DNA of 62,869 bases, from positions 1 to 62,869 of IMG/VR virus record IMGVR_UViG_3300045988_104021; one strand, 5' to 3'. Below, one piece after another: positions 1,605 through 59,336 of the stretch; position 1 is the first letter of the stretch, and the number at the start of each line of letters is the position of its first letter. This stretch comes from a virus. Below the pieces are notes generated by a model. The model was not told the DNA's origin and did no database searches. It saw nothing but the letters and a program-made list of their open reading frames with translations. The translations under genes were made by a program, and so were the position numbers.

Positions 1605-3008
1605 TTACTTAGCGAACGACCAATAGAAATAAACCTCGCTATCATCCACTTCTATCCGTTCCAAGAGTTGAAACAAAGAATACCGCACATACTCTATATT
1701 TCCTTTTCGCATGGCCGCAGGAAGTTCTTGAATGAGAAGTTTGGCCGCTTCCATTCTAAATGTATTTGTATTGCCTTTTTGATTTGTATTGATTTGATTA
1801 AGTAACCGCATCTTTTCTTGATATAGAGAATCAATTCTTTGTGAAACATCCACAACTTGGAGTGTAGAGTCGTTCGCTTGGTATAAGTCCATTAAACGTC
1901 CTATCTCTTCGTTTAATCGTGTAATTTCCTCTTGGACTTTGCCGACAATGATACCGCCTTTTGGCGGTATTTTTTTTATTTCATGAAATAATTGAGGATT
2001 TTTGTTAAATCGGCTTATTTCATCGTATACTACATTTTCTAATTCTTCAAGAATCCAATTTTTGTTTTTACAGTTTGGGTCCTTTACCATGAGACGATTA
2101 ACCTTTGACCTGGAGTGGCAGCAATAGAACTTTTTCTTGTTAGAGTTTTGCTTTACACCATACCTTGCGCCACATTTAGCACAGTATACCAGACCGGATA
2201 AAACGTACTTGCTACCCTTTTTTGCGTATTTATGGACACCGGAACGCATATAGGAAACACGTTCAAAAGTTTCCTTTGAAACGATAGGGTCATGGCTGTC
2301 CGGTGTAAGAGTACCTTCAAAGTGAACGGTGCCTATATAGAGCGGATTATCCAGAACCGTTGCAATCGTTCCGGGGTGCCGCCAATCTCCATGTTTAGTT
2401 GTATAACCCTGCATTCGCTCGGATATGGCTGCAATAGATAGTCCGGCAGCATAGTATTCAAACACCATTCGCACCTGCTCCGCTTCTTTTTCATTTATGA
2501 CCAGCTCACCATCTATATAGTCATAGCCGATTGGGTCTGTACCGCCACCATGCCAATTTCCTTTTTTCGCACGACCGATACGACCGCCGAAAGTTCTTTC
2601 TTTGATTGTTTCCCTCTCCAGTTGAGCGAATACGGAAAGTATACCAACCATGGCACGTCCGAAAGATGTTGTTGTATCAAAGGATTCCGCTACCGATACA
2701 AAGTCAACGCCATTTGGAAGAAACAACTCTTCTATCAGATACAATGTGTCTTTTTGAGACCTTGAAAGCCTGTCCAATTTGGTTACGAGAACAACGTCAA
2801 TTTTCCCATCTTCAACGGCTTGAATCATCCGCTCCATGGCCGGACGTTCCAGAGTAGCACCACTATATCCAGGATCGATGAATATATCAACACATACCCA
2901 TCCCTTAGCCTTACAAAATGCAAGCAACTTTTCTTTTTGCTCCGGTATGGATGTATTTTCTTTTTGTCCGTCCGTTGATACCCTTCCATAAATCCCTACT
3001 CTTTTCAT
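1605..3008 (-). CDS. large serine recombinase (integrase)
   Basis: N-terminal resolvase-type catalytic domain MKRVGIYGRVSTDGQ...LVTKLDRLSRS...GILSVFAQLERE. Then a recombinase domain and a Cys-rich zinc module (YCAKCGARY...FYCCHSR) with a coiled-coil tail. Preferred start is ATG 3008. Confidence 0.9.
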   Translation of the reverse strand: MKRVGIYGRVSTDGQKENTSIPEQKEKLLAFCKAKGWVCVDIFIDPGYSGATLERPAMERMIQAVEDGKIDVVLVTKLDRLSRSQKDTLYLIEELFLPNGVDFVSVAESFDTTTSFGRAMVGILSVFAQLERETIKERTFGGRIGRAKKGNWHGGGTDPIGYDYIDGELVINEKEAEQVRMVFEYYAAGLSIAAISERMQGYTTKHGDWRHPGTIATVLDNPLYIGTVHFEGTLTPDSHDPIVSKETFERVSYMRSGVHKYAKKGSKYVLSGLVYCAKCGARYGVKQNSNKKKFYCCHSRSKVNRLMVKDPNCKNKNWILEELENVVYDEISRFNKNPQLFHEIKKIPPKGGIIVGKVQEEITRLNEEIGRLMDLYQANDSTLQVVDVSQRIDSLYQEKMRLLNQINTNQKGNTNTFRMEAAKLLIQELPAAMRKGNIEYVRYSLFQLLERIEVDDSEVYFYWSFAK

Positions 3009-3067
3009 GCCGAAAGCACCCCTTATACATTTTTTTAACTTTTTATACATTATACTACAAAAAACTA

Positions 3068-3096
3068 TTGACATTTACTTCCAGAAAGAGTATGAT
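3068..3096 (+). promoter_or_regulatory. strong sigma-A-type promoter for the early rightward operon
   Basis: TTGACA (3068-3073), 17-nt spacer, TATGAT (3091-3096). It is followed by a CA-rich ACAGAAA-repeat leader. Confidence 0.6.
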
Positions 3097-14888: not shown

Positions 14889-15122
14889 ATGGCTCAATAT
14901 TGTAGATACTGCAATAACCTTGTAACCGGGAACGGTATTTATTGCACAGCGAAGAATAAGACCATGGCTGAAAGCACGGCAAAGACTACGAACAACTGTA
15001 AATTGTACGTTTTTAATCATGTAGATGCTTTCTACGAGAATGCGGATGGTTACAGACCTAGAAAGCCATTAAAACCGATCAGTGATGATTGCGCCGGACA
15101 GATGAAACTTGACTTGACCTAA
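14889..15122 (+). CDS. small hypothetical protein with N-terminal CxxC
   Basis: MAQYCRYCNN...YCTAKNK. Last gene before a long hairpin. Confidence 0.4.
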   Translation: MAQYCRYCNNLVTGNGIYCTAKNKTMAESTAKTTNNCKLYVFNHVDAFYENADGYRPRKPLKPISDDCAGQMKLDLT

Positions 15123-15197: not shown

Positions 15198-15237
15198 AAG
15201 GGACCGTTGATGGTTGCGTAACCGTTGGCGGTCCCTT
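15198..15237 (+). terminator. long hairpin closing the early/middle gene block
   Basis: About 16 bp including G-U pairs: gggaccgttgatggtt-gcgt-aaccgttggcggtccc, followed by ttt. Confidence 0.5.
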
Positions 15238-15258: not shown

Positions 15259-15286
15259 TTGAATTATTCTGCAAAAATGATAAAAT
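15259..15286 (+). promoter_or_regulatory. promoter of the late (packaging/structural) operon
   Basis: TTGAAT (15259-15264), 16-nt spacer, TGa-TAAAAT (extended -10 ending at 15286). Confidence 0.5.
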
Positions 15287-15359
15287 GGTATCAAAAGTGG
15301 CTTAATTTTCACCATTTTTTGAAAAAGAGACTAAAAAAACGATTGAAAGCGAGGGAATT

Positions 15360-16136
15360 ATGGATGGAAAGATAGTAAAGGAAAACGACTACAAAACAAC
15401 GGCAACCCCAAAAGCGGTAACCAATGATGGTATACCGGTATTTTGTTCGCATGATGAAATCGTGCCGACAAAGAACCTCAAACCAAACCCACTCAATCCG
15501 AACAACCACCCACAGGAACAAATCGAACTTCTCAAACAAATCATAGAAAAGACAGGATGGCGGCAGCCTATTACCGTATCAAACCGGAGCGGTCTTATTA
15601 CAAAAGGACACGGCAGATTACAGGCGGCCAAGTTTGCCGGATGGTCCAATGTCCCGGTAGATTATCAGGATTATTCTAACCAGGATGAAGAATATGCTGA
15701 TTTGATTGCCGATAACCGCCTTGCGGAATTATCCAATATTGATAATGAGATGCTTTCCGAGATGATTGGAACCATCGAAAATGAGGATATTCTTTCCCTG
15801 ACCGGATATGACGAAGAGGACATAGAAGCCTTGTTATCCGATATTGAAGAGGAAGAGGAACAGGAAGAAGAGGAAACACCAAAAGACCTCACTCCGTTCG
15901 CAAAAGCCGGGGATGTATGGCAGCTGGGAGAGCATCGTCTGATTGTTGGTGAAGATGATCCGGTGTGTGATGGTATCATTGCAAACTACGTTTATGAAAC
16001 CGGGAACTTAGGTTGCACCTGCACTCGTGATGGTAAAGAATACGGATATATGGAACTGGTAACCTCATGGTCCGTTGAAAATGGAATGGAAGCCGATATG
16101 TTCAAAATGAGAAAGCCTGTAATTAAAAGAAAATAA
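15360..16136 (+). CDS. ParB/Srx N-terminal-domain protein 1, with acidic linker and a vestigial methyltransferase-like segment
   Basis: LKPNPLNPNNHP...ITKGHGRLQAAKFAG (GxxRxxA box)...ADNRLAE, then EEEEEQEEEE, then GDVWQLGEHRLIVGEDD. Confidence 0.75.
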   Translation: MDGKIVKENDYKTTATPKAVTNDGIPVFCSHDEIVPTKNLKPNPLNPNNHPQEQIELLKQIIEKTGWRQPITVSNRSGLITKGHGRLQAAKFAGWSNVPVDYQDYSNQDEEYADLIADNRLAELSNIDNEMLSEMIGTIENEDILSLTGYDEEDIEALLSDIEEEEEQEEEETPKDLTPFAKAGDVWQLGEHRLIVGEDDPVCDGIIANYVYETGNLGCTCTRDGKEYGYMELVTSWSVENGMEADMFKMRKPVIKRK

Positions 16137-16148
16137 CAACGATAGGAT

Positions 16149-16928
16149 GTGTTTGCTTGCATGGCAAAGATTAAACCTAAAGCGATGGCCGGAGATATTC
16201 CGGTGTATTGTTCTCATGATAAGATTGTCAGCATTACAAAAGTGGTACCGAACCCACGGAATCCAAACATACACCCGGAGCGGCAGATTGAAATTCTGTC
16301 AAAGATTATTCAGGAGCAGGGATGGCGGCAACCGATAACGATAAGCAACCGAAGCGGTTTTATCGTAAAAGGTCATGGTAGATACCTGGCAGCCGTTCAA
16401 TTCAACGCAAATGATGTTCCGGTAGATTACCAGGACTACGAAAATGAAGCGGAAGAATGGGCGGACCTTATCGCCGATAACCGCATAGCCGAACTAAGCA
16501 ACATGAATGAAGATTTACTTTCTGAATTGCTGCTTGATATCAGCGATACGGACTTTGATATTCTTCTAACCGGTATGGAATATGCCGACATTGACAGCCT
16601 TATCAATAATGACGAAGCCTTGACTGTGATTGACAATATCATGGATGAGTCGGAGCAGAAAAGGGAAGAACCACCAAAAGGAAACATGGATTATATCCCA
16701 AGCGAAGAACCCACGGAAACAACACCGCAAGATACAGTTGGAAACACAGAGGAAACACAGAATATCCACGAACCCACCACAGAAGAACCACAGATAACAA
16801 CCACCACCAATTTCAATTACAAAGAACAATACGGCGTTATCGTCATTTGCAAGGACGAAACGGAACAGCAGGAAGTCTATGAAAAACTGGCCGCTGATGG
16901 TTACGAATGTAAGGTCGTGACAACATGA
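16149..16928 (+). CDS. ParB/Srx N-terminal-domain protein 2 (paralogue)
   Basis: VVPNPRNPNIHP...IVKGHGRYLAAVQF...ADNRIAE, with an acidic/T-rich C-half. Start is uncertain (GTG 16149 or ATG 16161). Confidence 0.75.
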   Translation: MFACMAKIKPKAMAGDIPVYCSHDKIVSITKVVPNPRNPNIHPERQIEILSKIIQEQGWRQPITISNRSGFIVKGHGRYLAAVQFNANDVPVDYQDYENEAEEWADLIADNRIAELSNMNEDLLSELLLDISDTDFDILLTGMEYADIDSLINNDEALTVIDNIMDESEQKREEPPKGNMDYIPSEEPTETTPQDTVGNTEETQNIHEPTTEEPQITTTTNFNYKEQYGVIVICKDETEQQEVYEKLAADGYECKVVTT

Positions 16929-18079
16929 GCCAGTTGACCAAAATTGAAATACATAACCATGTAGAGGATTTTAATAGTTACCGTGCTGCAAGGGTAAAGA
17001 GCCTTTTCAACGCAAAAGACGGATGCAACTTTGACCTCGAAGCCACCATGGATTTATCCGGTGATTGGCAGATAGGAGTTGTTGTAGGCCCATCCGGGAG
17101 CGGAAAGACTTCCATTGGCAAAGTGATATTCGGAAACGACAAGATACACGATTACCGGAAAGGCTGGTCACATGACAAGCCTATTGTGGATGAGATTGCT
17201 CCTGATGGTGACTTTAACGAGGTAACCGGTGCGCTGGCTAACGTAGGTTTAGGTGATGTGCCGGCATGGTTGAGACCGTTCCACGTTCTTTCTAATGGTG
17301 AGCAGTTCCGGGCAGGATTGGCACGGATCATATGCGAAAAGCCAAGAGAGGTTGTCGTGGATGAGTTTACATCCGTGGTAGACCGTCAGATTGCAAAAAT
17401 CGGTTCACAGGCTTTTCAAAAGGCATGGAGAAGAACAAACCAAAAAGGGAAAGTTGTACTACTGACACCTCACTACGATATTTTGAATTGGGTGCAGCCG
17501 GATTGGGTATTTGATACCGCTACGAAGAGATTTGAAAGGGGAACTCCCAGGCAAAGACCGAAGATACGACTTGAGATTTTCAAGACGAACTCAAGTTACT
17601 GGAAGTTTTTTAAGCCGCATTACTATTTAGATTTGCCGATGCCACCTGCAGCAGAGTATTTTGTCGGAACCGTTGATGGTGAACTTGCTTGTCATGTTGC
17701 CGTTGCTCCTATGTTTACGGCGAACGCTTACCGTGCTACACGGCTTGTAACAATGCCAGAATGGCAAGGGGCAGGTGTTGGGTTCCGGTTCCTTGAGTGG
17801 GTATGTGAATATCATCTTGACGGTAACGGACGATGTAATAAGCGGTACCCGACATTCTTCCATACCTCGCACCCTCAACTTTGCATGGCGTTAAGGAGAG
17901 GAAAGCACTGGATTCAGACAAGTGCCATGCTTTACGGTGATAACAAAAAAAGAAGTGCCATGAGCATTCAGAAAAGCCACAACAAAAACAGCGGAAAAAT
18001 GAACGGTGTAGGCTATGGTGGACACTTCCGAGCGGTGCAGGGATTCAAATACATAGGAAAGTATGGTGAGAATCAATGA
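16925..18079 (+). CDS. ABC-type ATPase fused to a GNAT-like acyltransferase domain
   Basis: Walker A GPSGSGKTS, signature-like LSNGEQFRAGLA, Walker B VVVDEF, LLTPHYD. C-half TMPEWQGAGVGFRFLEW resembles GNAT motif A. ATGA overlap with the upstream gene. Confidence 0.6.
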   Translation: MSQLTKIEIHNHVEDFNSYRAARVKSLFNAKDGCNFDLEATMDLSGDWQIGVVVGPSGSGKTSIGKVIFGNDKIHDYRKGWSHDKPIVDEIAPDGDFNEVTGALANVGLGDVPAWLRPFHVLSNGEQFRAGLARIICEKPREVVVDEFTSVVDRQIAKIGSQAFQKAWRRTNQKGKVVLLTPHYDILNWVQPDWVFDTATKRFERGTPRQRPKIRLEIFKTNSSYWKFFKPHYYLDLPMPPAAEYFVGTVDGELACHVAVAPMFTANAYRATRLVTMPEWQGAGVGFRFLEWVCEYHLDGNGRCNKRYPTFFHTSHPQLCMALRRGKHWIQTSAMLYGDNKKRSAMSIQKSHNKNSGKMNGVGYGGHFRAVQGFKYIGKYGENQ

Positions 18080-18705
18080 ACATCTTTCTATGCGCTCAAC
18101 GTAGTTTTGGAAAAGCGGTTCTGATCGAACTACACAATCGAGGTCATAACATCGTTGGAGTAGCACCGCCGCCGCAAGAGAAGTATTTTGACAAGATTGT
18201 CGGAGCGGCCATGATACGTGGTATTCCTTGCGTAAGTGATATGGACAAATTGACATCCGCAGATATTCCGGATAACACGGATTTGATTGTGGCAGCACAT
18301 TCTCACTGGTTTATATCCGATAAGGTGATAGAAAAGGCAAGCCATGGTGGGATAGGATTTCATCCTTCCCTTTTGCCACGTCACAGAGGGCAGGATGCTG
18401 TCCGGTGGGCGGTTGCCATGGGTGACGCTATAACCGGCGCATCCGTTTACTGGCTGAATGAAAAGGTGGATGGTGGGGACATTCTCACACAAAAGCCTAT
18501 CTTCATAGACAAATCATGGAGTTACAAGGACTTATGGAAAGAGATATTCCCTATCGGAGTGCAAATGCTCTGTGATTCCGTTGATTTAATAGAATCCGGC
18601 GAAGCCGGACGCTTTCCGCAAAATGAGCGGTATGCCACATGGGAGCCTTCATTTAATGCGAAAAGGCTCAAAAGAAACGAACTTATCATGATTGGAAAGG
18701 AGTGA
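18076..18705 (+). CDS. formyltransferase-fold protein (PurN/Fmt N-domain-like)
   Basis: GFHPSLLPRHRGQDAVRWAV...ASVYWLNEKVDGGDIL. There is no Fmt C-terminal domain, and Gly sits at the usual Asn position. ATGA overlap upstream. Confidence 0.7.
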   Translation: MNIFLCAQRSFGKAVLIELHNRGHNIVGVAPPPQEKYFDKIVGAAMIRGIPCVSDMDKLTSADIPDNTDLIVAAHSHWFISDKVIEKASHGGIGFHPSLLPRHRGQDAVRWAVAMGDAITGASVYWLNEKVDGGDILTQKPIFIDKSWSYKDLWKEIFPIGVQMLCDSVDLIESGEAGRFPQNERYATWEPSFNAKRLKRNELIMIGKE

Positions 18706-19235
18706 ATATGATGGCTAAGGAAAAGGAAATAATGCCGTGGGAACGGCAAGAAGATGAGACACCGAAGCAGTTTGAAGCATTCAAAGTGTATAGGAATATG
18801 GGGGAAGAACGTAGTCTATCAAAGGTATCAAAGCAGTTGAGCAAATCAACCGCATTGATGGCCAGATGGAGCCGAAGTAATAATTGGGTGGATAGATGCG
18901 TTGCATGGGATAACGAACAGGACCGCTTGCTTGCTATCGAACAGCGAAAGGAAATCAAGAAGATGCGTAAGCGTCATGCTGACGTAGCAAGTGCCATGAT
19001 TGCTACCGCCGTAAAGGGTTTGAAGCAGATTCAGGAACACATGGAAGACATCAAGCCGCAGGATGTAGCAAGGCTTGTTGATGTAGCATCCAAACTGGAA
19101 CGTATCAGCCGTGGAGATGTCGGAGATGTTGTCGAGCAGAGGGATGGCGGTCAGTCGGTTGACCCTGTTCAGATTTACATTCCGGACAACGGACGAAGCC
19201 GGAAAGATGATTCCTTTGACGATTTGGAAGTTTAG
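18702..19235 (+). CDS. terS: terminase small subunit
   Basis: N-terminal HTH-like FEAFKVYRNMGEERSLSKVSKQLSKSTALMARWS, directly upstream of terL. The likely true start is ATG 18708 or 18711. Confidence 0.65.
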   Translation: MNMMAKEKEIMPWERQEDETPKQFEAFKVYRNMGEERSLSKVSKQLSKSTALMARWSRSNNWVDRCVAWDNEQDRLLAIEQRKEIKKMRKRHADVASAMIATAVKGLKQIQEHMEDIKPQDVARLVDVASKLERISRGDVGDVVEQRDGGQSVDPVQIYIPDNGRSRKDDSFDDLEV

Positions 19236-19272
19236 TCCAAGATTAGTCCAAATTTAGTCCAAGTTTAGACCA
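19232..19272. repeat. four helically phased direct repeats TTAGTCCAA (candidate pac / TerS-binding site)
   Basis: Copies start at 19232, 19243, 19254 and 19265 (the last is TTAGACCA), exactly 11 nt apart, in the terS-terL gap. Confidence 0.5.
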
Positions 19273-19304: not shown

Positions 19305-19508
19305 ATGCCAGTAGTAATTAAACCACAGCCTAAACAGGAGCAGTTCCTAAGTTCCCCGGCTGACATCGTTATTTATGGCGGTGCTGCAGGTGGGGGAAAA
19401 ACTTACGCCCTATTGATGGAAGAGTGTAGGAATAGTGGAAATCCACGTTTTAATTCCGTGATATTCAGAAGAAATAATACGCAGATATTTACCAATGGCG
19501 GACTTTAG
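19305..19508 (+). CDS. terL: terminase large subunit, N-terminal fragment (Walker A), ended by an in-frame TAG
   Basis: IVIYGGAAGGGKTYAL...SVIFRRNNTQIFTNGGL then TAG at 19506-19508. Same frame as 19524... Confidence 0.75.
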   Translation: MPVVIKPQPKQEQFLSSPADIVIYGGAAGGGKTYALLMEECRNSGNPRFNSVIFRRNNTQIFTNGGL

Positions 19509-19523
19509 CTTTGGGATTCTGCC

Positions 19524-20903
19524 ATGGCATTACTCCCTCAAATTGGAGCAGAGCCGAAAAAAACCCCGAAGCCTACGTTTACATTCCGAAGCGGTGCCAA
19601 GGTTGTATTCGATCACTTGGAACGATATGAGGATTGCCTTGCTTATCAGGGTTCACAGCTGGTTATGGTTGCGTTTGATGAATTGACGCACTTTGATGAG
19701 GACGTATTCTGGTATATGTTCTCTCGTATTCGTTCTGATTCCGGCATTGATGGCTATGTAAGAGCCACAACGAACCCGGACCCTGATAGTTGGGTTCGGA
19801 CGTTCATTGGCTGGTGGATAGGGGAAGACGGCTTGGCTATCCCGGAGCGGAGCGGTAAACTCCGATGGTTCATCCGCATCAATGGGGAATGTGTTTGGGG
19901 AGATTCCAGAATGGAACTACTCAAATACCAGTTTGACGGAGACATCACAGAAGTAGACAAGTCTATTGATGATACGGATAAACTATTTGTCCTTGACGAA
20001 AACGACAGCAAGGCACAGACGGTTATCAAAGAGGGCAGAGAGGGCGTTCTATACGTTGTCACAGGAACGAAAGAGTTCTTCCAATGGACAGGCGAAGAAT
20101 ACCACCGATTGATGGCACCAAAGAGCGTGACATTCATCCTCTCCACGTTGCAGGATAACAAGATCCTGATGAGGAATGATCCGTCATACCTTGCCAATTT
20201 GCAATCTCTGCCATATGTGGAGCAGGAGCGGTTGCTTGGTGGGAACTGGAATATACGTCCTGCTGCCGGAATGTACTTCCCACGTGCAAAGGCCAATATC
20301 ATTGATGAGATCCCGAACGATGTCAAGAAGTGGGTTCGTGCTTGGGACCTTGCCGGAACAGAGGACAAGAAAAACAACAATCCGGAAGATGGTCCGGCTT
20401 ATACCGCTGGTGTGCTTATCGGCAAACGGAAGAACGGACGTATTGTGATTGCTGACGTTATCAATCAGCGTCTTGATTCAAGTGACGTAAGAAATACAGT
20501 TCTAAACACCGCAAAGGCTGACAAGGAAGCATATAAGCGTGTGCGAATACGGATGAACCAGGACCCAGGGCAAGCCGGAAAAGACCAAGCGGCTCAATAT
20601 CTCAAATTGCTATCAGGTTTCAGCGTGAATATCGAGCGTGAGAGCGGTTCTAAGGAGACAAGAGCCGAATCCCTATCATCACAATGGATAGGACTGAAAG
20701 GCTCCGAAAGGGGCAACGTGGACGTTCTGAACGCACCATGGACACAAGCCTACCTTGCACAGATGGACGGATTCCCGGACAGAAAGTTCAAGGATATGGC
20801 AGATGCCAGTTCGACCGGGTTCCTGGAACTAGAGAGTATGTCAAGCGGTTCCGCACCGCCTAAAGATACAGGTAACAGCAAACAATCATATTGGAACAGA
20901 TAG
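19524..20903 (+). CDS. terL: terminase large subunit, remainder (Walker B plus nuclease domain)
   Basis: The frame stays open from 19509 (LWDSAMALL...). VMVAFDELTHFDE is the Walker B, followed by a C-terminal nuclease-like region. Confidence 0.8.
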   Translation: MALLPQIGAEPKKTPKPTFTFRSGAKVVFDHLERYEDCLAYQGSQLVMVAFDELTHFDEDVFWYMFSRIRSDSGIDGYVRATTNPDPDSWVRTFIGWWIGEDGLAIPERSGKLRWFIRINGECVWGDSRMELLKYQFDGDITEVDKSIDDTDKLFVLDENDSKAQTVIKEGREGVLYVVTGTKEFFQWTGEEYHRLMAPKSVTFILSTLQDNKILMRNDPSYLANLQSLPYVEQERLLGGNWNIRPAAGMYFPRAKANIIDEIPNDVKKWVRAWDLAGTEDKKNNNPEDGPAYTAGVLIGKRKNGRIVIADVINQRLDSSDVRNTVLNTAKADKEAYKRVRIRMNQDPGQAGKDQAAQYLKLLSGFSVNIERESGSKETRAESLSSQWIGLKGSERGNVDVLNAPWTQAYLAQMDGFPDRKFKDMADASSTGFLELESMSSGSAPPKDTGNSKQSYWNR

Positions 20904-22372: not shown

Positions 22373-22876
22373 ATGGAATTAGAATTTGCGAAATACATAG
22401 GAACGAAACTGATTAAGGCAAAGCCAATGACAAGGGGAGAGTATAATGATTTGAAAGGAATAAAAGGTGATTACAGATATAAAGGAGAAGAAGGTTATCT
22501 TGTCGTGTATGTGGATTCCGATAATTACGAAAGCTGGTCTCCTAAAGATGTATTTGAAAGAGCATATAAAGCCTGTGATGGTGGAATGACATTTGGAGGT
22601 GCGTTGGAACTGCTAAAGATGGGATTCAAGGTAGCAAGGAAAGGCTGGAACGGAAAGGGAATGTTTATCTATATGCAGGACGGATCGTATCCGTATTTCC
22701 ACCAGCTGAAAGAGGATGTGCAGCGGAAACTTGTTGACACGAATTGCGTCAACAAATCCGGAGCGGTTACTATCTGCCCTCATATCGACATGAAAGCAGC
22801 GGACGGCTCTCTTGTGATTGGCTGGTTAGCAAGTCAGACAGATATGCTTGCTGATGATTGGATTGTCGTTAAGTAA
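22373..22876 (+). CDS. two-domain protein with a C-terminal DUF2829 (Tad2-like) domain
   Basis: C-half MTFGGALELLKMGFKVARKGWNGKGMFIYMQ...IDMKAADGSLVIGWLASQTDMLADDWIVV matches the DUF2829 pattern. Confidence 0.7.
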   Translation: MELEFAKYIGTKLIKAKPMTRGEYNDLKGIKGDYRYKGEEGYLVVYVDSDNYESWSPKDVFERAYKACDGGMTFGGALELLKMGFKVARKGWNGKGMFIYMQDGSYPYFHQLKEDVQRKLVDTNCVNKSGAVTICPHIDMKAADGSLVIGWLASQTDMLADDWIVVK

Positions 22877-27179: not shown

Positions 27180-28427
27180 TTGAAAGCAAAATTATTTTCC
27201 GAAATAGTAAAACTGAATAAATCGGATGCGGATATAGACAAGTTCAATCCGTATCATGATAGCCTTGGCAGATTCACTACCAGCGGTGGTGGTGCATCCT
27301 TTTCTGGTACGTTGCTGCATGGTAGTCCGCACAAGGGCATCAAAGAGTTTGACATGAGCCGTGCCGGTCATAACACTTCAAGCGGTGAAAAACTCTTGTT
27401 CTTCACGGACAGCAAGCAGATGGCAGACGATTTCTCCTATGAGCGCAAGGAAGGGAGCAGTAAATTCTTTCAGCAGCGAGGGAAGAAGGGAAGAGTCTAT
27501 GAAGTTGATGTGGAGATGAAGAATCCACTCGACCTTAGAAAACTAAGTGACAAGGATGTAAGCAACATTCTGAAACTTGATCCGGACGGGATTCTGACAA
27601 AAGAGACCGTTCAGCAGTATGCAAAGAGCAATCACCAGCTTCTGAAAGCTGGATTGAACCTTACGGCGGATTCGCTCAAAGAGTTGGGATATGACGGACT
27701 GATTGCGAACACCGGGAAAGCCGGACACAACTCGATGGAATATGCCGTAGTTGACAGCAAACAGGCGAAGATTAGAAAGAGTGATGATATGTCATTAACC
27801 TTTTCGGAAGTTTTGAAGTTCAATCAAAACCACGACAAACTTGGAAGGTTTGCATCCGGGAATTGTGGAGCGGCTGCAAGTGGCGGAATAAGTCCTGAAT
27901 TTAGAGCAACATTATATCAAGCAGAATCAGACAGCATATGGGAATCTAATGAGGTGTCAACTGTTTATGACAGCAAAGGGAATAAGTTATTTCACAAACA
28001 AGGGACTGAACATAATGTAGAGTTTAGTGATGATGAAATAACTAAGCTAAAAGGAGCAACACTGACACATAACCATCCGAATAATTCTTTTTTTTCAGAA
28101 GAGGATCTGTCTGTGGCTACAGAATATGAACTAAAAGAGATTAGAGCGTGTACGGAACAGGCTATATACTCATTCAAACCAGCAGGAATGACAAATAACT
28201 TAATGTTCAATAACAGATACAAAAAGTTTAATGAAAGCCTGACACAAGAGTTAAAGGATGAATTTCTTAAAAAGATAGATAATCATGAAATGACATCTGA
28301 TGATGCTCAAAAAGAATACATAAAAGAACTTGCCAATCGAAGGTCACAGTTTTTCAAAGAACAGCAGAAGTTTTTTAAGTACGAGTATGAAGAAATTAAA
28401 TGGGATTCATTTGAAGATTTATGGTAA
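27180..28427 (+). CDS. polyvalent-type cargo protein: ART-PolyVal-like ADP-ribosyltransferase plus RadC-like JAB/MPN-like domain
   Basis: Linkers KFNPYHDSLGRF and KFNQNHDKLGRF. ART-like LLHGSPHKGIKEFD...LLFFTDS...GYDGLI...MEYAVVDSKQAKI. C-domain LTHNHPNNSFFSEEDL. Confidence 0.6.
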   Translation: MKAKLFSEIVKLNKSDADIDKFNPYHDSLGRFTTSGGGASFSGTLLHGSPHKGIKEFDMSRAGHNTSSGEKLLFFTDSKQMADDFSYERKEGSSKFFQQRGKKGRVYEVDVEMKNPLDLRKLSDKDVSNILKLDPDGILTKETVQQYAKSNHQLLKAGLNLTADSLKELGYDGLIANTGKAGHNSMEYAVVDSKQAKIRKSDDMSLTFSEVLKFNQNHDKLGRFASGNCGAAASGGISPEFRATLYQAESDSIWESNEVSTVYDSKGNKLFHKQGTEHNVEFSDDEITKLKGATLTHNHPNNSFFSEEDLSVATEYELKEIRACTEQAIYSFKPAGMTNNLMFNNRYKKFNESLTQELKDEFLKKIDNHEMTSDDAQKEYIKELANRRSQFFKEQQKFFKYEYEEIKWDSFEDLW

Positions 28428-28442: not shown

Positions 28443-30527
28443 TTGGGAATAAAGTTAGATTATGAAGAAAACAAAAAACTGAACAAAATCTTTCAAGAGT
28501 TCAAAAACCACTCTGATTCAGAAAATACAAAAAAGAGAATTTCATCATTTAATATCACAAAGGCAGACGAAGATAAAAGGCTCGTCTTTGGATGGGCCTT
28601 GGTATCTGCCGACAAAGACGGAAACAAACTTATCGATCACCAGGGGGATATGGTAGACCCTGACGATTTAGAAGATGGAGCATATGAGTATGTTCTGAAC
28701 TTCCGGGATGCTGGAGAGGAACATATCGGAACGCTCCGAAAGAAAGCACGTATGGTTGAATCGTGCGTGTTTACTCCGGAGAAGATGAAAGCCATCGGAA
28801 TACCAGATGGAACAATCCCGGTAGGCTGGTGGATTGGCTTCTATGTTGACGATGATACGACATGGGAGCGGATTAAGTCCGGAAAGTACAAGATGTTTTC
28901 TATTGAGGGTAAGGCGGTCCGTGAGCCGGTGGATGAGCCGGTTGTGAAATCGGAAGATGAAGATTCCGGAGTGGTTGCAAAGACCTTTTCGGAGATGATC
29001 GAGAAATTCAACCCATATCATGATTCAAAGGGGCGCTTTACATCGGGCAGCGGTGGGAATTATGCATCATTTACCTACGCACCGGGAAAGAGCAAAGCCC
29101 ACGATAATGCTATAGCCAGAGAAAGGGAGAGAGCTGCTAACAGAGGTTCTGGTTCCGATAATTCACCCCACGCAACCTCAAACAAGATCAAGCAGGAGTT
29201 TATAGATTCCGGACTTAATAGCAAATTTGCTGGTGTAAGAAGAAACGCACAAGATGGAAAAGGTGCATACTCTTACAAAGATGCTGTCCCGGTATCAGAA
29301 AGCGATGCGTCAAAAATTAGCGGAATGCAGTTCGTAGAGCATAACGGAAAAACACTTGTACATGGTATTTTGGGAGACCAAAAAGTTTTTTACGCAAACA
29401 ACAGTGACAGTAGAGAAATTAAGGCTTTACGTCAAAAAGCGGAAGAGAGGGGACAAGAGAGGTTAGAAACGGCAAGGCACAGACCAGAGACAAGAACAAC
29501 AACCACAACCTACGATAGATGGAAGAGAAATCATGATAAGAATTTTGCCGACTGGTTTGGTGTTGGAAAGTCAATGACATTTAATGAGATAGCAAAGTTC
29601 AACCCATATCATGACCGCTTAGGCAGATTTACTACCGGCGGTGGCGCAACATCGTTCACAATACGAACCAAAGACCCTAGCAAACAACATATGGCTGACA
29701 TTGCTATTGCTAGGGAAAAGGAACGATCTTCATCCGGTGTAAAAACCGGAAACTACACGGAAACAAAACCTCAACAAAAACCACAAAAAGAAAGTAATAC
29801 AGCAGACACACCACAGAAAAAATCACTACACACCGTAGAAGATAAAATCAGACATCAGTTTTACGAAAGCGCAGCCGTTGTGGATAAAGACGGCAATGTA
29901 CTTTTAAAAAAGGACGGCGCACAATCGCAGGTAGGATTCACTAACAAGGAAGTTAAAATGATGGATGGCAATTCACTAACGCACAATCATCCTTCAAGTT
30001 CCATGTTTTCCACAGAAGACATAACAATGCTTGTTAAAAGCGGTTTATCTGAAATCAGGGCAACGACAAGAGAGGGAATTACCTACAGTGTAAGAAAGGG
30101 AACTGGATATGACAGTACAAAAGGCATGAGGTTCCTTGTCAATTATGACGGAGAAAGAAAATCTGCAATGCGGCACGCACAGGCAACGCTGGATGGCCGT
30201 GGGTACTATGGGAAGATCATGGATGGTAAAATCACGCAGGAGCAGGCTAACCACGATTTTGGTAAAGTAATGTCCTCACAGATGGTGCGCTGGTGCAATA
30301 CGCAATCAAAGAAGTATGGAGTTGATTTTGAAGTGGAACGAAGGGAAGTGCCTAAAAAAGACAAGGTAAACATAGGATATGCTTCAAAGTCATTCAATGA
30401 CGATGATAAGTTTGTACTTGACAGGGACAGTGAAAAGGAAATGCAGGACGCATTTAATGAGTGGTTTAAAAGCCACAAGGAAAAAACAGCAAAATCATTT
30501 AATGACTTTTTGAAAGAAAGGAGATAG
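28443..30527 (+). CDS. XkdF-like prohead protease fused to an unknown domain and a second RadC-like JAB/MPN-like domain
   Basis: ITKADEDKRLVFGWALVS...HQGDMV...MVESCVF...GWWIGFYV...MFSIEGKA resembles PBSX XkdF. Linkers KFNPYHDSKGRF and KFNPYHDRLGRF. SLTHNHPSSSMFSTEDI. Confidence 0.6.
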   Translation: MGIKLDYEENKKLNKIFQEFKNHSDSENTKKRISSFNITKADEDKRLVFGWALVSADKDGNKLIDHQGDMVDPDDLEDGAYEYVLNFRDAGEEHIGTLRKKARMVESCVFTPEKMKAIGIPDGTIPVGWWIGFYVDDDTTWERIKSGKYKMFSIEGKAVREPVDEPVVKSEDEDSGVVAKTFSEMIEKFNPYHDSKGRFTSGSGGNYASFTYAPGKSKAHDNAIARERERAANRGSGSDNSPHATSNKIKQEFIDSGLNSKFAGVRRNAQDGKGAYSYKDAVPVSESDASKISGMQFVEHNGKTLVHGILGDQKVFYANNSDSREIKALRQKAEERGQERLETARHRPETRTTTTTYDRWKRNHDKNFADWFGVGKSMTFNEIAKFNPYHDRLGRFTTGGGATSFTIRTKDPSKQHMADIAIAREKERSSSGVKTGNYTETKPQQKPQKESNTADTPQKKSLHTVEDKIRHQFYESAAVVDKDGNVLLKKDGAQSQVGFTNKEVKMMDGNSLTHNHPSSSMFSTEDITMLVKSGLSEIRATTREGITYSVRKGTGYDSTKGMRFLVNYDGERKSAMRHAQATLDGRGYYGKIMDGKITQEQANHDFGKVMSSQMVRWCNTQSKKYGVDFEVERREVPKKDKVNIGYASKSFNDDDKFVLDRDSEKEMQDAFNEWFKSHKEKTAKSFNDFLKERR

Positions 30528-56544: not shown

Positions 56545-57084
56545 ATGGAAAAACAATTTAAGATGGGTTCGCTCTTTGATGGGTTGTACTCAATTACCAA
56601 TGACGGACGTTTATATAGCAATAGAAGAAATAAGTTTTTGCGTCCATCGACAGATAAATACGGCTATCTATATTATGTGATAAGTATTGATGGGGTAAGA
56701 AAAACACTAAAAGCACATAGGCTTGTTGCACAAGCATTTATTCCGAATCCGTACAACAAGCCTACTGTAAACCATAAAAACGGAATACGAGATGATAACA
56801 GGGTTGAAAATCTTGAATGGGCGACTTATAAAGAGCAGCAAGAAAATGAAGTTACAAAAGAACGTGCAAAAAAGGTTCACGAAAAAACAGATTATAGGAG
56901 CATGGGAGCAAAACGGAATTTTGGAAGAAAAAAAACAGCCGTATATAAAGATGGTGTACTCATAGGAAAGTATGAAACATTATTGGAAGCGGCTAGGCAA
57001 AATAATACGAATTACTCAAAGGCATCTGAATGTGCTAATGGTAATCGAAAAAAAGCAGGAGGGTTAGTATTTTGTTTCGAATAG
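56545..57084 (+). CDS. HNH_3/NUMOD4-type homing endonuclease
   Basis: YSITNDGRLYSNRRNKFL...YLYYVISIDGVRKTLKAHRLVAQAF...VNHKNGIRDDNRVENLEWAT. Confidence 0.8.
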   Translation: MEKQFKMGSLFDGLYSITNDGRLYSNRRNKFLRPSTDKYGYLYYVISIDGVRKTLKAHRLVAQAFIPNPYNKPTVNHKNGIRDDNRVENLEWATYKEQQENEVTKERAKKVHEKTDYRSMGAKRNFGRKKTAVYKDGVLIGKYETLLEAARQNNTNYSKASECANGNRKKAGGLVFCFE

Positions 57085-59336
57085 GAAGTTTATTTTCAGG
57101 ATCAGGCGGTTTTGAATTAGCCGCCACACTTTGCGGAATGGAGCCAATATGGGCTTCTGAAATCGAACCCTTCCCCATCCGAGTAACCACGAAACGATTT
57201 CCCCACATGAGACACTACGGAGATATATCCTCAATAGCCGGCTCGGAACTTGAGCCGGTAGACCTCATAACAGGCGGTTCACCATGCCAAGATATGTCAG
57301 TCGCAGGAAAACGAAAAGGAATGAGCAAAGAGTGTCCGAAATGCGGTTACAAATCGGTAGCCAATGAAGATGCGGACATTTGCCCGGAATGTGGTTCTGA
57401 AATGCAATATACACGCTCCGGGTTATTCATGGAACAAATACGAGTAATCAAAGAAATGAGGGAAGCAGATGAAAGAAATGGAAGGTCAGATCAGTTTATT
57501 CGACCTCGATTCATGCTCTGGGAAAATGTTGTCGGAGCATTCTCCAGCAACAAAGGAGAAGATTTTCGAGCCGTACTTGAAGAAACAGCGAAAGTCAAAG
57601 ACAAGACCGCCACTATTCCTAGACCTCCGAAAGGAAAATGGAATACAGAGGGATGCATCGTGGGTGATGGGTGGAGCATTGCCTGGAGAGTTCTCGATGC
57701 TCAATTTTGGGGAGTCCCCCAAAGACGCAGACGAATCGCTCTTGTCGCAGATTTTGCAGGACAATGTGCCGGAGAAATATTATTTAAGCGAGAAGGCTTG
57801 TCAAGGAATTTTACGGAGAGCCGAAAAGAGGGGCAAGCAGCTTCCGGAGATATTGCGAAAGGCACTGATGCATCAGGCGAACATGGTATCGTAAGCAAGC
57901 ATACATTTAGAAAAACAGCACATCCACGGAACAGTGAGGAAGGACAAGGATGGGAGCATACAGACGTAAATGATACGCTCAATGTTTTTGACAATGGAGA
58001 AGTAAGAACACCTACATTGGTATGTGAAAAAGACACGGAAGTCAAACATTGCATAGGGTTTGAACCGGGAGCAGCAACACGAACCGGGGGACATACATAC
58101 GATAACCAAACTGGATCATTAAGAGCGAACATGGGAGATAATCAGTTTTGCGTGGCGAAAGAAGAACAATATGCCGTTGATTTTGGCAGAGTTGCTGACA
58201 GAATACAGATGAACGCAACAAAGGCGGTAACACTACAAGGATTAGGCGGTGGTTCAGGTGCAAAGACAGGATTGTATTGTCTGCCAAAAGATGCACCACC
58301 GATAGGGATAAACGGTACAGTAGCAGGAACGCTTGACAGCAACTGTTACAAAGGACAGGGAGAAAGAAACGGTGTCGAAAGAGAATGTGTAGCCGTTCCT
58401 GTCACCATGCAAGTACGATGTGGAAATCCGAACGGTGGCGGTAAAGGTGCATTGCTGCAGATAAACAAATCAGCAACATTGAGTTGTGGTGTTCCACAGA
58501 CGCTATTTGATCCGCAAAAGAAAGTTTATGGAATATGCTCTTATGGCTCAAACTCAATGAAATCCGATAATCCACATAGCGGAATATACGAAGCTGACAC
58601 GGCAAGAACATTAGACCTCAATGGTGGTAATCCTGCTTGCAATCAAGGCGGTATATGCGTTGTGGAAGGTAACGCACCTGTTTATACAATAGATGAAAAA
58701 ATGGGAAATACATATATATGGAAGGAGCAGGGAAATACGCTTGCAAGTAGAGATTATAAGCAACCACAGGCGGTATGCGTTGTGGAAGGTAACGGCTCTC
58801 GTCCGTCACATCGTGGAGATGGATATAAGGAATCAGAAACCATGTACACGCTGAATACGACAGAGCAACACGCAGTAGCTTACGATTGCAGAAACAATGT
58901 TCCAATAGAAGAAAAGAGCGGTACATTACAGGCTAAGTCGAATGGTGGTCAGTCATTGAATTATATCAATCCGGTAGCACAACGATGCGGATTTGAACAG
59001 AAAGCATTTGGAAAATATGATGAATCAGGAAAAGCAAGCTGTCTAAAAAGCAGAGATTACAAAGATGCTACTGATTTGATAGTTGAACCATCCTACATAG
59101 TAAGACGGCTGACACCGATTGAATGTGCAAGATTGCAAGGCTTCCCAGACTGGTGGCTGGATGGTCTTGAAACAGAAGAACCGACAGGGCATGATATAGC
59201 CTTTTGGCGAGAAGTCTTTGAAATCCATAGAAAAGTAGTCACAGGAGCAAAGAAACCAAAGACGGACAAGCAGATCATAAAATGGTTGCAGAATCCGTAC
59301 TCCGATGGTGCAGCATATAAGTTATGGGGAAACTGA
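57072..59336 (+). CDS. dcm: DNA (cytosine-5) methyltransferase with a zinc-ribbon insert and a roughly 470-aa variable region; ends at an in-frame TGA inside motif X
   Basis: Motif I SLFSGSGGFELA, IV GGSPCQDMS, VI LWENVVG, VIII QFWGVPQRRRRIAL, IX RRLTPIECARLQGFP, X ...KLWGN then TGA. The frame continues IALPCFLYVVEGIKEVL to 59408. Confidence 0.85.
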   Translation: MFRIGSLFSGSGGFELAATLCGMEPIWASEIEPFPIRVTTKRFPHMRHYGDISSIAGSELEPVDLITGGSPCQDMSVAGKRKGMSKECPKCGYKSVANEDADICPECGSEMQYTRSGLFMEQIRVIKEMREADERNGRSDQFIRPRFMLWENVVGAFSSNKGEDFRAVLEETAKVKDKTATIPRPPKGKWNTEGCIVGDGWSIAWRVLDAQFWGVPQRRRRIALVADFAGQCAGEILFKREGLSRNFTESRKEGQAASGDIAKGTDASGEHGIVSKHTFRKTAHPRNSEEGQGWEHTDVNDTLNVFDNGEVRTPTLVCEKDTEVKHCIGFEPGAATRTGGHTYDNQTGSLRANMGDNQFCVAKEEQYAVDFGRVADRIQMNATKAVTLQGLGGGSGAKTGLYCLPKDAPPIGINGTVAGTLDSNCYKGQGERNGVERECVAVPVTMQVRCGNPNGGGKGALLQINKSATLSCGVPQTLFDPQKKVYGICSYGSNSMKSDNPHSGIYEADTARTLDLNGGNPACNQGGICVVEGNAPVYTIDEKMGNTYIWKEQGNTLASRDYKQPQAVCVVEGNGSRPSHRGDGYKESETMYTLNTTEQHAVAYDCRNNVPIEEKSGTLQAKSNGGQSLNYINPVAQRCGFEQKAFGKYDESGKASCLKSRDYKDATDLIVEPSYIVRRLTPIECARLQGFPDWWLDGLETEEPTGHDIAFWREVFEIHRKVVTGAKKPKTDKQIIKWLQNPYSDGAAYKLWGN

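Follow-up and report, generated by a model that had tools for sequence, protein, structure and literature searches.

In IMG/VR record IMGVR_UViG_3300045988_104021 (positions 1 to 62,869, the whole 62,869-nt stretch being called the window), the four genes examined here, at 15259-18705, encode two ParB-like proteins, a 384-aa protein in which an ABC-type ATPase is fused to a GNAT acyltransferase (ATPase::GNAT), and a formyltransferase. We propose, with somewhat less than even confidence, that this module is a ParB-assisted, ATP-driven N-acyltransferase that marks the phage DNA before packaging. The proposal starts from observed features of the module, namely its gene content, motifs, fold, synteny, gene fusions and translational coupling. 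The four open reading frames (ORFs) lie where the original prediction had placed them, ahead of the terminase genes, and their tight coupling is real: ATGA joins stop to start at both 16925 and 18076, the 384-aa ORF spanning 16925-18079 and the 209-aa ORF 18076-18705, with TerS and TerL next in order. The parts of the module are as follows.

15360..16136, + strand: ParB1, 258 aa; ParB N-domain, acidic linker and first methyltransferase motif (GDVWQLGEHRLIVGE)
16149..16928, + strand: ParB2, 259 aa; ParB N-domain, acidic/Thr-Pro-rich linker and C-terminal mini-domain; alternative start ATG 16161
16812..16925, + strand: C-terminal mini-domain (mini-CTD) of ParB2 (NFNYKEQYGVIVICKDETEQQEVYEKLAADGYECKVVTT); phrog_28816 at 6e-15
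16925..17560, + strand: ABC-type ATPase half of the 384-aa protein; Walker A GPSGSGKT, signature LSNGEQ, Walker B VVVDEF, H-loop TPH
17561..18079, + strand: GNAT acyl-CoA N-acyltransferase half; motif A PEWQGAGVG, then a basic, poorly ordered tail and a conserved last strand (GFKY)
18076..18705, + strand: FDH/HypX-type formyltransferase catalytic domain (FDH, 10-formyl-tetrahydrofolate dehydrogenase), 209 aa; FHPS...VDGGD, no Asn two residues before the His, no OB subdomain

The ATPase::GNAT protein

The N-terminal half carries the full ABC motif set that had been claimed for it. GPSGSGKT, LSNGEQ, VVVDEF, SVVD and TPH occur in that order within an ABC fold, and G55, S57, G58, G60 and K61, S123, G125 and E126, D146 and E147, and H183 are invariant or nearly so across two clades that are ~32% identical. 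The window protein scores 32.6 bits on Pfam ABC_tran (cut-off 25), and the family profile matches nucleotide-binding domains in the PDB at 1e-11. The segment of the C-terminal half that had been likened to GNAT motif A belongs to a genuine GNAT domain: all 12 of the divergent members tested match Acetyltransf_1 (PF00583, best 3e-9), the window protein by itself scoring 17.7 bits, under the cut-off of 20.7, and the motif A residues Q281 and G282 are invariant in the two-clade comparison. Since the catalytic motifs are invariant across divergent clades, the enzyme appears to be built to be active.

The AlphaFold input was an alignment joining the two clades, that of Rhodococcus phage Jace having been added, and the resulting model (predicted local distance difference test, pLDDT, 85; predicted template modelling score, pTM, 0.78) consists of an ABC nucleotide-binding domain and a GNAT fold. 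The 32 sequences of at least 72% identity alone gave a model of pLDDT 56, which was set aside. Foldseek did not find the two domains together in any PDB entry (the highest query TM-score being 0.36); this whole-model search was dominated by the ABC half, which matched transporter-type ABC domains (FtsE and PotA at probability 1.0), and did not classify the GNAT half. Against BFVD the C-terminal half matched GNAT proteins, and the sole full-length match was the homolog of Leptospira phage LE4. A profile of the GNAT half gave weak, generic GNAT matches in the PDB, polyamine acetyltransferases being the best (E = 0.03-0.09) and diamine, spermidine and N-terminal acetyltransferases being included. 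In PHROGs the protein belongs to phrog_11143 (3e-153), whose function is listed as unknown; PADLOC returned no informative defence-system match for it, only a local match of the ABC signature to mad3, and we found no characterisation of the family in the literature.

Members of the family are named in GenBank as 'ABC iron siderophore transporter' or 'phosphoribosylglycinamide formyltransferase'. Such database names, together with a suggestion in the literature (PMC2920897), speak for an ABC transporter or a metabolic 'moron'. Against this, the ABC domain forms one chain with a GNAT, FtsE ranks first in NCBIfam with 39.9 bits (cut-off 264.85), the NCBIfam transporter-ATPase, PurN and Fmt scores all fall far under their cut-offs, and no permease or transmembrane partner was seen in the neighbourhoods examined, which were not scored systematically for one. 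The domain architecture and the gene context therefore effectively refute the transporter or moron explanation.

Inteins of the Hint/LAGLIDADG type were observed within the conserved ABC motifs of three homologs (P0358, P0359 and P0366), and the one in P0366 interrupts the LSNGEQ signature.

The ParB-like proteins and the mini-domain

ParB1 and ParB2 are paralogous (53% identity over ~170 aa, E = 2e-53) and carry the GxxR boxes KGHGRLQAA and KGHGRYLAA, both as first noticed; in an alignment with the Spo0J and Noc structures their GHGR falls on GERR. ParB1 reaches the cut-off of Pfam ParB_N (PF02195; 26.7 bits against 26.3) and ParB2 is below it at 19.8 bits. Membership of the ParB/Srx N-domain superfamily is backed by PHROG ParB-family matches at 1e-32 to 4e-34, the matches of ParB2 to such families ranging from 1e-32 to 5e-40. 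Both N-domains are nearest to those of ParB-fused DNA methyltransferases, the two proteins matching phrog_498, a family of this type, at 7e-52 and 5e-40 and PADLOC MTase_II at 4e-26 and 1e-19. Neither is itself a ParB-fused methyltransferase, since the matches reach only ~208 of 633 and 183 of 436 profile positions (ParB1 covers 13-208 of the 633 in phrog_498) and the catalytic domain is absent. Nor is either a partition ParB: the scores on TIGR00180, 32.9 and 24.1 bits, stay below its cut-off of 58.45, there is no helix-turn-helix (HTH) or other DNA-binding domain, which is replaced by an acidic linker, and no ParA is adjacent. The only ParA-like gene found (380-1150) lies 14 kb from the ParB-like genes and shares no operon with them.

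To see which parts recur, we used a set of 134 non-redundant loci from annotated phages, IMG/VR and metagenomes. The upstream gene encodes a recognisable ParB in 79 of these loci and the mini-domain as a stand-alone protein of 40-65 aa in another 20 (99/134 together). The common element of the upstream genes is the mini-domain, the last ~37 residues of ParB2, with the consensus F-x-Y-K-E-Q-Y-G-V-I-V-x-C-x-x-E-x-E-Q-x-x-V-Y-x-x-L-x-x-x-G-Y-x-C-K-V-V; where a ParB N-domain is present, an acidic linker connects it to the mini-domain and there is no DNA-binding domain. In 103 of 114 loci the stop codon of the mini-domain gene shares bases with the start of ATPase::GNAT, and in P0282 and P0312 ParB N-domain, linker, mini-CTD and ATPase::GNAT form one polypeptide by in-frame fusion. 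Because the mini-domain is shared by the upstream genes, overlaps the enzyme gene and is found with it in single chains, we take the core of the module to be the mini-domain plus ATPase::GNAT. The mini-CTD of ParB2 is the most conserved partner of the enzyme, and the whole ParB is not required. ParB1 retains the first motif of the ParB-fused methyltransferases and has neither their catalytic domain nor a mini-CTD; a ParB1-like upstream gene occurs in a single locus of the 134, and ParB1 is an accessory, rarely conserved protein outside the core.

In a Corynebacterium diphtheriae prophage (L093:7218-7796) a second ParB-like gene follows ATPase::GNAT and precedes an HTH TerS-like gene and TerL, which indicates that ParB duplication around the enzyme recurs in differing layouts.

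Distribution and linkage to the terminase

The ATPase::GNAT family comprises 484 clusters at 50% identity in an exhaustive search (E <= 1e-30), and two word-indexed searches gave more than 7,600 clusters each at 90% identity. Homologs occur in the Mu-like phages phiE255 (Burkholderia) and Komp_PAO1_1 (Pseudomonas), in phages of Porphyromonas, Gordonia, Rhodococcus, Arthrobacter, Streptococcus, Lactococcus, Oenococcus and Enterococcus, in Leptospira phages LE3/LE4, in T4-like phages of Aeromonas and Vibrio, and in marine Bacteroidota phages. Between phages of Firmicutes-like gut hosts, Burkholderia and Gordonia the protein is 50-55% identical, and such identity across unrelated phyla fits a universal substrate. 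The order ParB, ATPase::GNAT, formyltransferase recurs in phages of five bacterial phyla. Of the four-gene linkage put forward originally, this order has therefore held up, while ParB1 is rarely conserved and the formyltransferase slot is variable.

Co-occurrence beside terminases in other phages, which the original prediction had proposed as a check, was found to be common. Among the 134 loci, 88 have a first large ORF within 2.5 kb downstream, and ~77 of these 88 are large terminases, distributed over Terminase_6 (40), Terminase_3 (26), TerL_ATPase (8) and GpA (3). Since four terminase families are represented, the location ahead of the packaging genes is conserved irrespective of the kind of terminase. 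An exception is seen in the Mu-like phages phiE255 and Komp_PAO1_1, where the module lies behind the tail-fibre genes and far from the terminase. In phage Mu itself, mom is located after the tail-fibre genes. Either position, terminase-proximal or late and mom-like, fits the marking of DNA ahead of packaging.

This linkage could also suggest a packaging accessory in which the role of ParB and the ABC ATPase is to recognise DNA, or to condense it, for the terminase, the GNAT and formyltransferase being regulatory or vestigial. The module occupies the usual place of terS, and in Gordonia phage Axumite, where no TerS is annotated, it forms genes 1-3, ahead of the terminase; ParB is known to work with an ABC ATPase in the loading of SMC; and an array of 11-bp repeats lies between terS and terL in the window. 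We nevertheless regard a packaging accessory as very improbable, as the GNAT QGxG, the formyltransferase His-Ser-Asp and the Asp of the CoA-transferase found in other phages (CoA, coenzyme A; see below) are all strictly conserved, the Mu-like phages carry the module away from the terminase, and the T4-like phage PX29 and Nonlabens phage P12024S locate it elsewhere.

Another explanation is that the module acylates a protein (TerS, the portal, ParB itself or a host defence protein), with ParB serving only as a scaffold. Most characterised GNATs act on proteins or small molecules, and AcrVA5 is a GNAT anti-CRISPR that acts on a host defence protein. The nearest, albeit weak, PDB matches of the GNAT half are the diamine/spermidine and N-terminal acetyltransferases, the module adjoins terS/terL, and the stand-alone mini-CTD is annotated as an 'acr candidate' in Porphyromonas phages. 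The identity of 50-55% across unrelated phyla, however, speaks against a host-specific target, the linkage over four terminase families against a specific terminase partner, and a dedicated supply of an unusual acyl donor would be atypical of protein acetyltransferases. A protein target is in our view improbable, if the least so of the alternatives considered here.

In the T4-like Aeromonas phage PX29 (L087:5069-7001, gp084, gp083) ATPase::GNAT has no ParB partner; the genes that come after it encode proteins of 231 aa (phrog_20146) and 415 aa, the latter resembling N6 DNA methyltransferases at its C-terminus.

The formyltransferase and the variable downstream slot

The 209-aa protein is, as first described, a formyltransferase catalytic domain (Formyl_trans_N at 2e-21), only positions 2-204 of the 315 in Fmt being covered, and the Gly reported two residues before the catalytic His (His96, in FHPS) is present. 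It is neither an Fmt nor a PurN. For Fmt, TIGR00460 gives 80.2 bits (cut-off 201.5), the place of the Asn is taken by Gly and the C-terminal OB-fold tRNA-binding domain is missing; for PurN, TIGR00639 gives 49.4 bits against 150.1, and none of the 65 family members examined has the Asn, the position being Gly or Ile/Val throughout. Among PDB matches the hydrolase domain of FDH ranks first (1e-25, residues 2-191), ahead of Fmt (8e-16) and PurN (~1e-8); ArnA and LgrA are also matched, and HypX itself weakly (E = 7e-4). The window motif FHPSLLPRHRG...VDGGD aligns to YHPSLLPRHRG...LDTG of FDH. Both have the His-Ser-Asp triad, as defined for the FDH N-terminal domain and HypX (PMC6802093), in HPS...D and lack the Asn, a pattern kept across the family. 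The N-terminal domain of FDH transfers formyl to a 4'-phosphopantetheine thiol, and the homologous domain of HypX is the proposed maker of formyl-CoA, an activity inferred from structure rather than measured (PMC6802093). The phage protein belongs by its sequence to this FDH/HypX-type branch, and we read it as a supplier of formyl-CoA rather than as a tailoring enzyme resembling DpdN. A DpdN-like role, part of the original prediction, and with it assignment to a 7-deazaguanine system, was rejected, as no DpdA or preQ0 synthesis genes are among the window genes scanned.

The gene downstream of ATPase::GNAT varies across the 134 loci: a formyltransferase in 38, PanD and/or a CoA-transferase-like protein in 12, and otherwise mostly a small ORF followed by an ORF of 400-570 aa. 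Phages phiE255, Komp_PAO1_1 and Gordonia phages Axumite and Mariokart have the formyltransferase variant, whereas Leptospira phage LE4 and Lactococcus phage P335 have no donor gene. In Rhodococcus phage Jace and its relatives the slot holds the aspartate decarboxylase PanD (Pfam 2e-33) and a protein of ~228 aa. The latter scores 34.1 and 23.8 bits on the family III CoA-transferase model PF02515 (cut-off 23.3), and its profile matches formyl-CoA transferase and CoA racemase at ~1e-3, with an invariant Asp on the catalytic YD..QA motif. Since two unrelated cassettes point to CoA thioesters beside a CoA-dependent GNAT, donor supply is the simplest explanation of the slot. The donors would be formyl-CoA in the window, beta-alanyl- or formyl-CoA in the Jace type, and acetyl-CoA in phages that have no cassette.

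The same genes could alternatively act stepwise on the polymer. The GNAT would then install an amine-bearing acyl or aminoacyl group on DNA, the formyltransferase would N-formylate the amine, and PanD would decarboxylate an aspartyl moiety, in a manner that would resemble the stepwise sculpting of thymidine hypermodification. Enzymes of the Fmt branch (Fmt, ArnA and LgrA being among the matches) usually formylate primary amines of aminoacyl or amino-sugar groups, and PanD, as a pyruvoyl enzyme, requires a free amine. Phage hypermodification also decorates DNA-appended amino acids by way of decarboxylases and acetyltransferases (PMC8989533). The window formyltransferase nevertheless lacks the Asn of the amine-directed members and has its nearest match in the thiol-directed FDH domain, the alternative cassette would have use for a family III CoA-transferase only if CoA thioesters are made, and no gene for an amino-acid:DNA transferase or a DNA kinase was found in the window. 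We consider such on-polymer tailoring to be quite improbable.

An RNA or nucleotide target (tRNA or rRNA acylation in the manner of TmcA/NAT10, acylation or formylation of aminoacyl-tRNA, or modification of the nucleotide pool) would borrow the TmcA/NAT10 logic of joining an ATPase to a GNAT. The ABC-F proteins EttA and VmlR/ExpZ are among the ABC sequence matches, and the formyltransferase is related to Fmt. The ATPase, however, is a single minimal ABC domain and neither a helicase nor a tandem ABC-F, the NAT10 chains match the GNAT-half profile at a non-significant E = 1.4-1.5, the formyltransferase has no tRNA-binding domain, and the window encodes no tRNA genes. An RNA or nucleotide target would also leave the partnership with ParB and the terminase-proximal position unexplained, and it seems to us distinctly improbable.

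Proposed function

For the favoured reading, in which phage DNA is N-acylated before packaging, the following sequence of events can be envisaged. The ParB N-domain, which belongs to the clade found in methyltransferase fusions, would bring the enzyme to the double-stranded DNA (dsDNA) of the phage or open it for the enzyme, and the mini-domain, a small beta-alpha-beta element, would tether ATPase::GNAT to the ParB-type protein. Upon ATP binding the ABC heads may dimerise on the substrate. The acyl group of a CoA thioester would then be moved by the GNAT onto an amine, most probably an exocyclic one on a DNA base. Genes of the 7-deazaguanine and 5-hydroxymethyl-dU pathways were absent from the window genes scanned, which did not include every small ORF, and any amine acceptor would therefore be a canonical base. 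In the window 10-formyl-tetrahydrofolate and CoA would be converted by the formyltransferase to S-formyl-CoA, so that an N-formyl mark is predicted; in other lineages PanD and the CoA-transferase might provide beta-alanyl- or formyl-CoA, and lineages with no cassette presumably use acetyl-CoA. With the module expressed at the head of a late operon, the DNA would be marked just before packaging and would probably evade host restriction. We infer a DNA target, a formyl-CoA intermediate and an anti-restriction role. DNA is favoured by the kinship of both ParB N-domains with those of DNA methyltransferases, by the build shared with the ParB activators of thymine dioxygenases (PMC13229309), by a known phage GNAT that modifies a base in DNA (PaMx11 gp48, PMC8989533), by the late or terminase-proximal position, by the identity kept across phyla and by the methyltransferase-like genes beside the module in PX29.

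Extended to the whole family, the proposal is that many phages, of at least five bacterial host phyla, practise a hitherto unrecognised kind of DNA modification, ATP-driven, ParB-assisted N-acylation of canonical bases from CoA thioesters, with a swappable cassette setting the acyl group (formyl, beta-alanyl or acetyl), and that the window phage carries N-formylated bases by way of phage-made formyl-CoA. This wider form is tentative, and we think it less likely than not. The original prediction of an acyl- or formyl-transfer machine acting near packaging and having no known equivalent is supported in part: its architecture, gene order and terminase linkage stand, the core has been redefined, and the formyltransferase has been recast from a DpdN-like role to donor supply.

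Several points weigh against N-acylation of DNA. We know of no phage GNAT that acylates canonical bases in DNA, N-formyl amides formed at exocyclic amines of bases could be unstable chemically, and we found no experiment or publication linking any family member to DNA chemistry; the paper on Leptospira phages LE3/LE4 reports nothing on modification of their DNA. ATPase::GNAT has no recognisable DNA-binding domain, and its ABC half is closer to the transporter-type nucleotide-binding domains (FtsE, PotA and Wzt) than to those of SMC, Rad50 or UvrA. Some members, Nonlabens P12024S and PX29 among them, are missing a ParB, the mini-CTD or a terminase close by. As to the donor, the family III CoA-transferase homolog is shortened (~228 aa) with weak PDB matches (E ~1e-3), PanD could have another role, and formation of formyl-CoA by HypX was itself inferred from structure and not measured (PMC6802093). 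Finally, in the ParB-dependent dioxygenase system, mutation of the nucleotide-binding residues of ParB had no effect (PMC13229309).

Terminase genes, regulatory signals and other features of the window

The features flanking the module are the following.

15198..15237, + strand: RNA hairpin of 18 bp in the 237-bp gap upstream of the module; -27.8 kcal/mol, z = -4.8
15259..15286, + strand: promoter-like site TTGAAT, 16 nt, TG-n-TAAAAT; 9/12 match with TG extension
18708..19235, + strand: small terminase subunit (terS); phrog_6299 at 5e-36; gene-caller start ATG 18708
19228..19272, + strand: tandem repeat, 4.1 copies of the 11-bp unit AAGTTTAGTCC, covering the end of terS and the terS-terL gap
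19305..20903, + strand: large terminase subunit (TerL); in-frame TAG at 19506-19508

The hairpin is not equalled by any of 200 shuffled sequences, is specific to the + strand because of its G-U pairs, and is probably the terminator of the operon that precedes the module. The promoter-like site had been described as the only recognisable late promoter, but it is one of 39 such 9/12 matches in 12-24 kb, where 27 would be expected by chance, and two equal matches lie at 15109 and 15114. It is situated directly past the strong strand-specific hairpin and within the largest local gap. Statistically the match is ordinary and its position is plausible, so that we treat it as a candidate only.

The start of terS had been placed at GTG 18702, overlapping the formyltransferase stop in GTGA. 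This is less likely than ATG 18708, which is favoured because it was called on two metagenome contigs and has AAGGAG 7 nt upstream; it lies 2 nt past the formyltransferase stop, and the spacing is still tight. The exact core TTAGTCCAA of the repeat array occurs nowhere else in the window, and the array is a candidate pac site or a candidate binding array for TerS or ParB.

The in-frame TAG of TerL is inside a 6-nt insertion ('...TNGGL*LWDSAM...' against '...TNGGLWDSAM...' in the relative L005), and the 67-aa N-terminal piece holds the Walker A motif. The split recurs in two metagenome contigs, each from a different sample, which makes a sequencing error unlikely; possible explanations are readthrough, reinitiation at ATG 19524 and a defective prophage. 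Genome-wide recoding of TAG was rejected, as TAG is a common stop in the window and there is no suppressor tRNA. In L005, the closest IMG/VR relative, TerL (L005:8360-10915) is an 851-aa protein with an intein-like insert that starts after 'GSQIPLI|CCEESTLIRMADG'.

Elsewhere in the window, the gene at 22373-22876, next after that of the portal, has a Tad2-like domain (PF11195, the anti-Thoeris sponge family), and an ORF within the head genes (27180-28427) has an ART-PolyVal domain, an ADP-ribosyltransferase of polyvalent proteins, and is directly upstream of an XkdF-type protease fusion (28443-30527). The right end encodes a 754-aa C5-cytosine methyltransferase with inserted zinc-ribbon-like segments (57072-59336) and an 837-aa protein in which an SNF2-related domain is fused to an N6/N4 methyltransferase (59784-62297). 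At the left end, a ParA/MinD-type ATPase gene stands beside that of a large serine recombinase (380-1150 and 1605-3074, - strand); the phage is thus temperate and may also partition as a plasmid.

Significance

If the proposal is correct, the N-acyl or N-formyl marks derived from CoA thioesters would represent a new chemical class of phage DNA modification, the ABC ATPase fused to a GNAT a new enzyme architecture, and the recently described role of ParB proteins in activating enzymes that modify DNA would be widened. Consequences would follow for restriction and other defences that sense DNA, for the reading of nanopore and PacBio signals from gut viromes, and for phage engineering. The family is widespread yet mis-annotated as ABC transporter, PurN or tRNA methyltransferase. 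Direct testing is feasible since culturable phages of Burkholderia, Pseudomonas, Gordonia, Rhodococcus, Streptococcus, Lactococcus and Leptospira carry it. Should the target not be DNA, a conserved, intein-invaded and terminase-linked enzyme would still be of interest.

Comparison with known systems

The closest parallel to the ParB-like partner is found with the 5mYOX dioxygenases. A phage thymine dioxygenase acts on dsDNA only with the help of a ParB protein that consists of a nucleotide-binding domain, an unstructured linker and a C-terminal domain, with no DNA-binding domain; neither end domain can be dispensed with, the activation is needed only on dsDNA, and the 5mYOX/ParB genes are frequently near terminases (PMC13229309). 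In architecture the two systems are alike, each having an N-domain, a linker and a small C-terminal domain beside a presumed or known DNA-modifying enzyme. They differ in that the partner here is an ABC ATPase::GNAT and there an Fe/2-oxoglutarate dioxygenase, and in that the mini-CTD here can occur without the ParB N-domain or fused to the enzyme.

Two GNAT-like phage enzymes provide a second comparison. PaMx11 gp48, a phage GNAT, transfers acetyl to an amine carried by a base of polymeric DNA (PMC8989533), but it acts on an aminomethyl group already installed by a kinase, transferase and lyase pathway that was not found in the window, and it has neither an ATPase fusion nor a ParB partner. 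By description rather than by sequence, the module can also be likened to Mom of phage Mu, which carries out GNAT-like N6-carbamoylmethylation of adenine: both are, or may be, late phage enzymes with an acyltransferase-like fold, and in phiE255 and Komp_PAO1_1 the module lies at the end of the late region after the tail fibres, like mom. Mom has no ATPase, ParB partner or donor-supply gene.

The formyltransferase shares its fold, the His-Ser-Asp triad and the missing Asn with HypX and the N-domain of ALDH1L1, which pass, or in the case of HypX are proposed to pass, formyl from 10-formyl-tetrahydrofolate to a CoA or phosphopantetheine thiol. The phage protein is the catalytic subdomain alone, with no OB, carrier, ALDH or enoyl-CoA-hydratase domain, and its alignment is strong to FDH and weak to HypX.

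TmcA/NAT10 likewise joins an NTPase to a GNAT and acylates the exocyclic amine of a base using acyl-CoA, and the TmcA-type architecture named in the original prediction is apt as an analogy of ATPase plus GNAT. It does not extend to family membership, since the ATPase there is a RecD-like helicase acting with an RNA substrate and here a minimal ABC domain, TmcA/NAT10 has neither a partner of the ParB kind nor a gene for donor supply, and the similarity between the GNAT halves is not significant. In the superfamilies to which its parts can be assigned (ABC, GNAT, ParB_N and, by its triad, the FDH/HypX-type formyltransferases) the module is a member at that level only, and TmcA/NAT10, Fmt, PurN and DpdN are analogies rather than family assignments. 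By analogy, the module would be functionally nearest to the ATPase-coupled GNAT base acetyltransferases (TmcA/NAT10) and to the ParB-activated DNA-modifying enzymes of phages, while being a member of neither.

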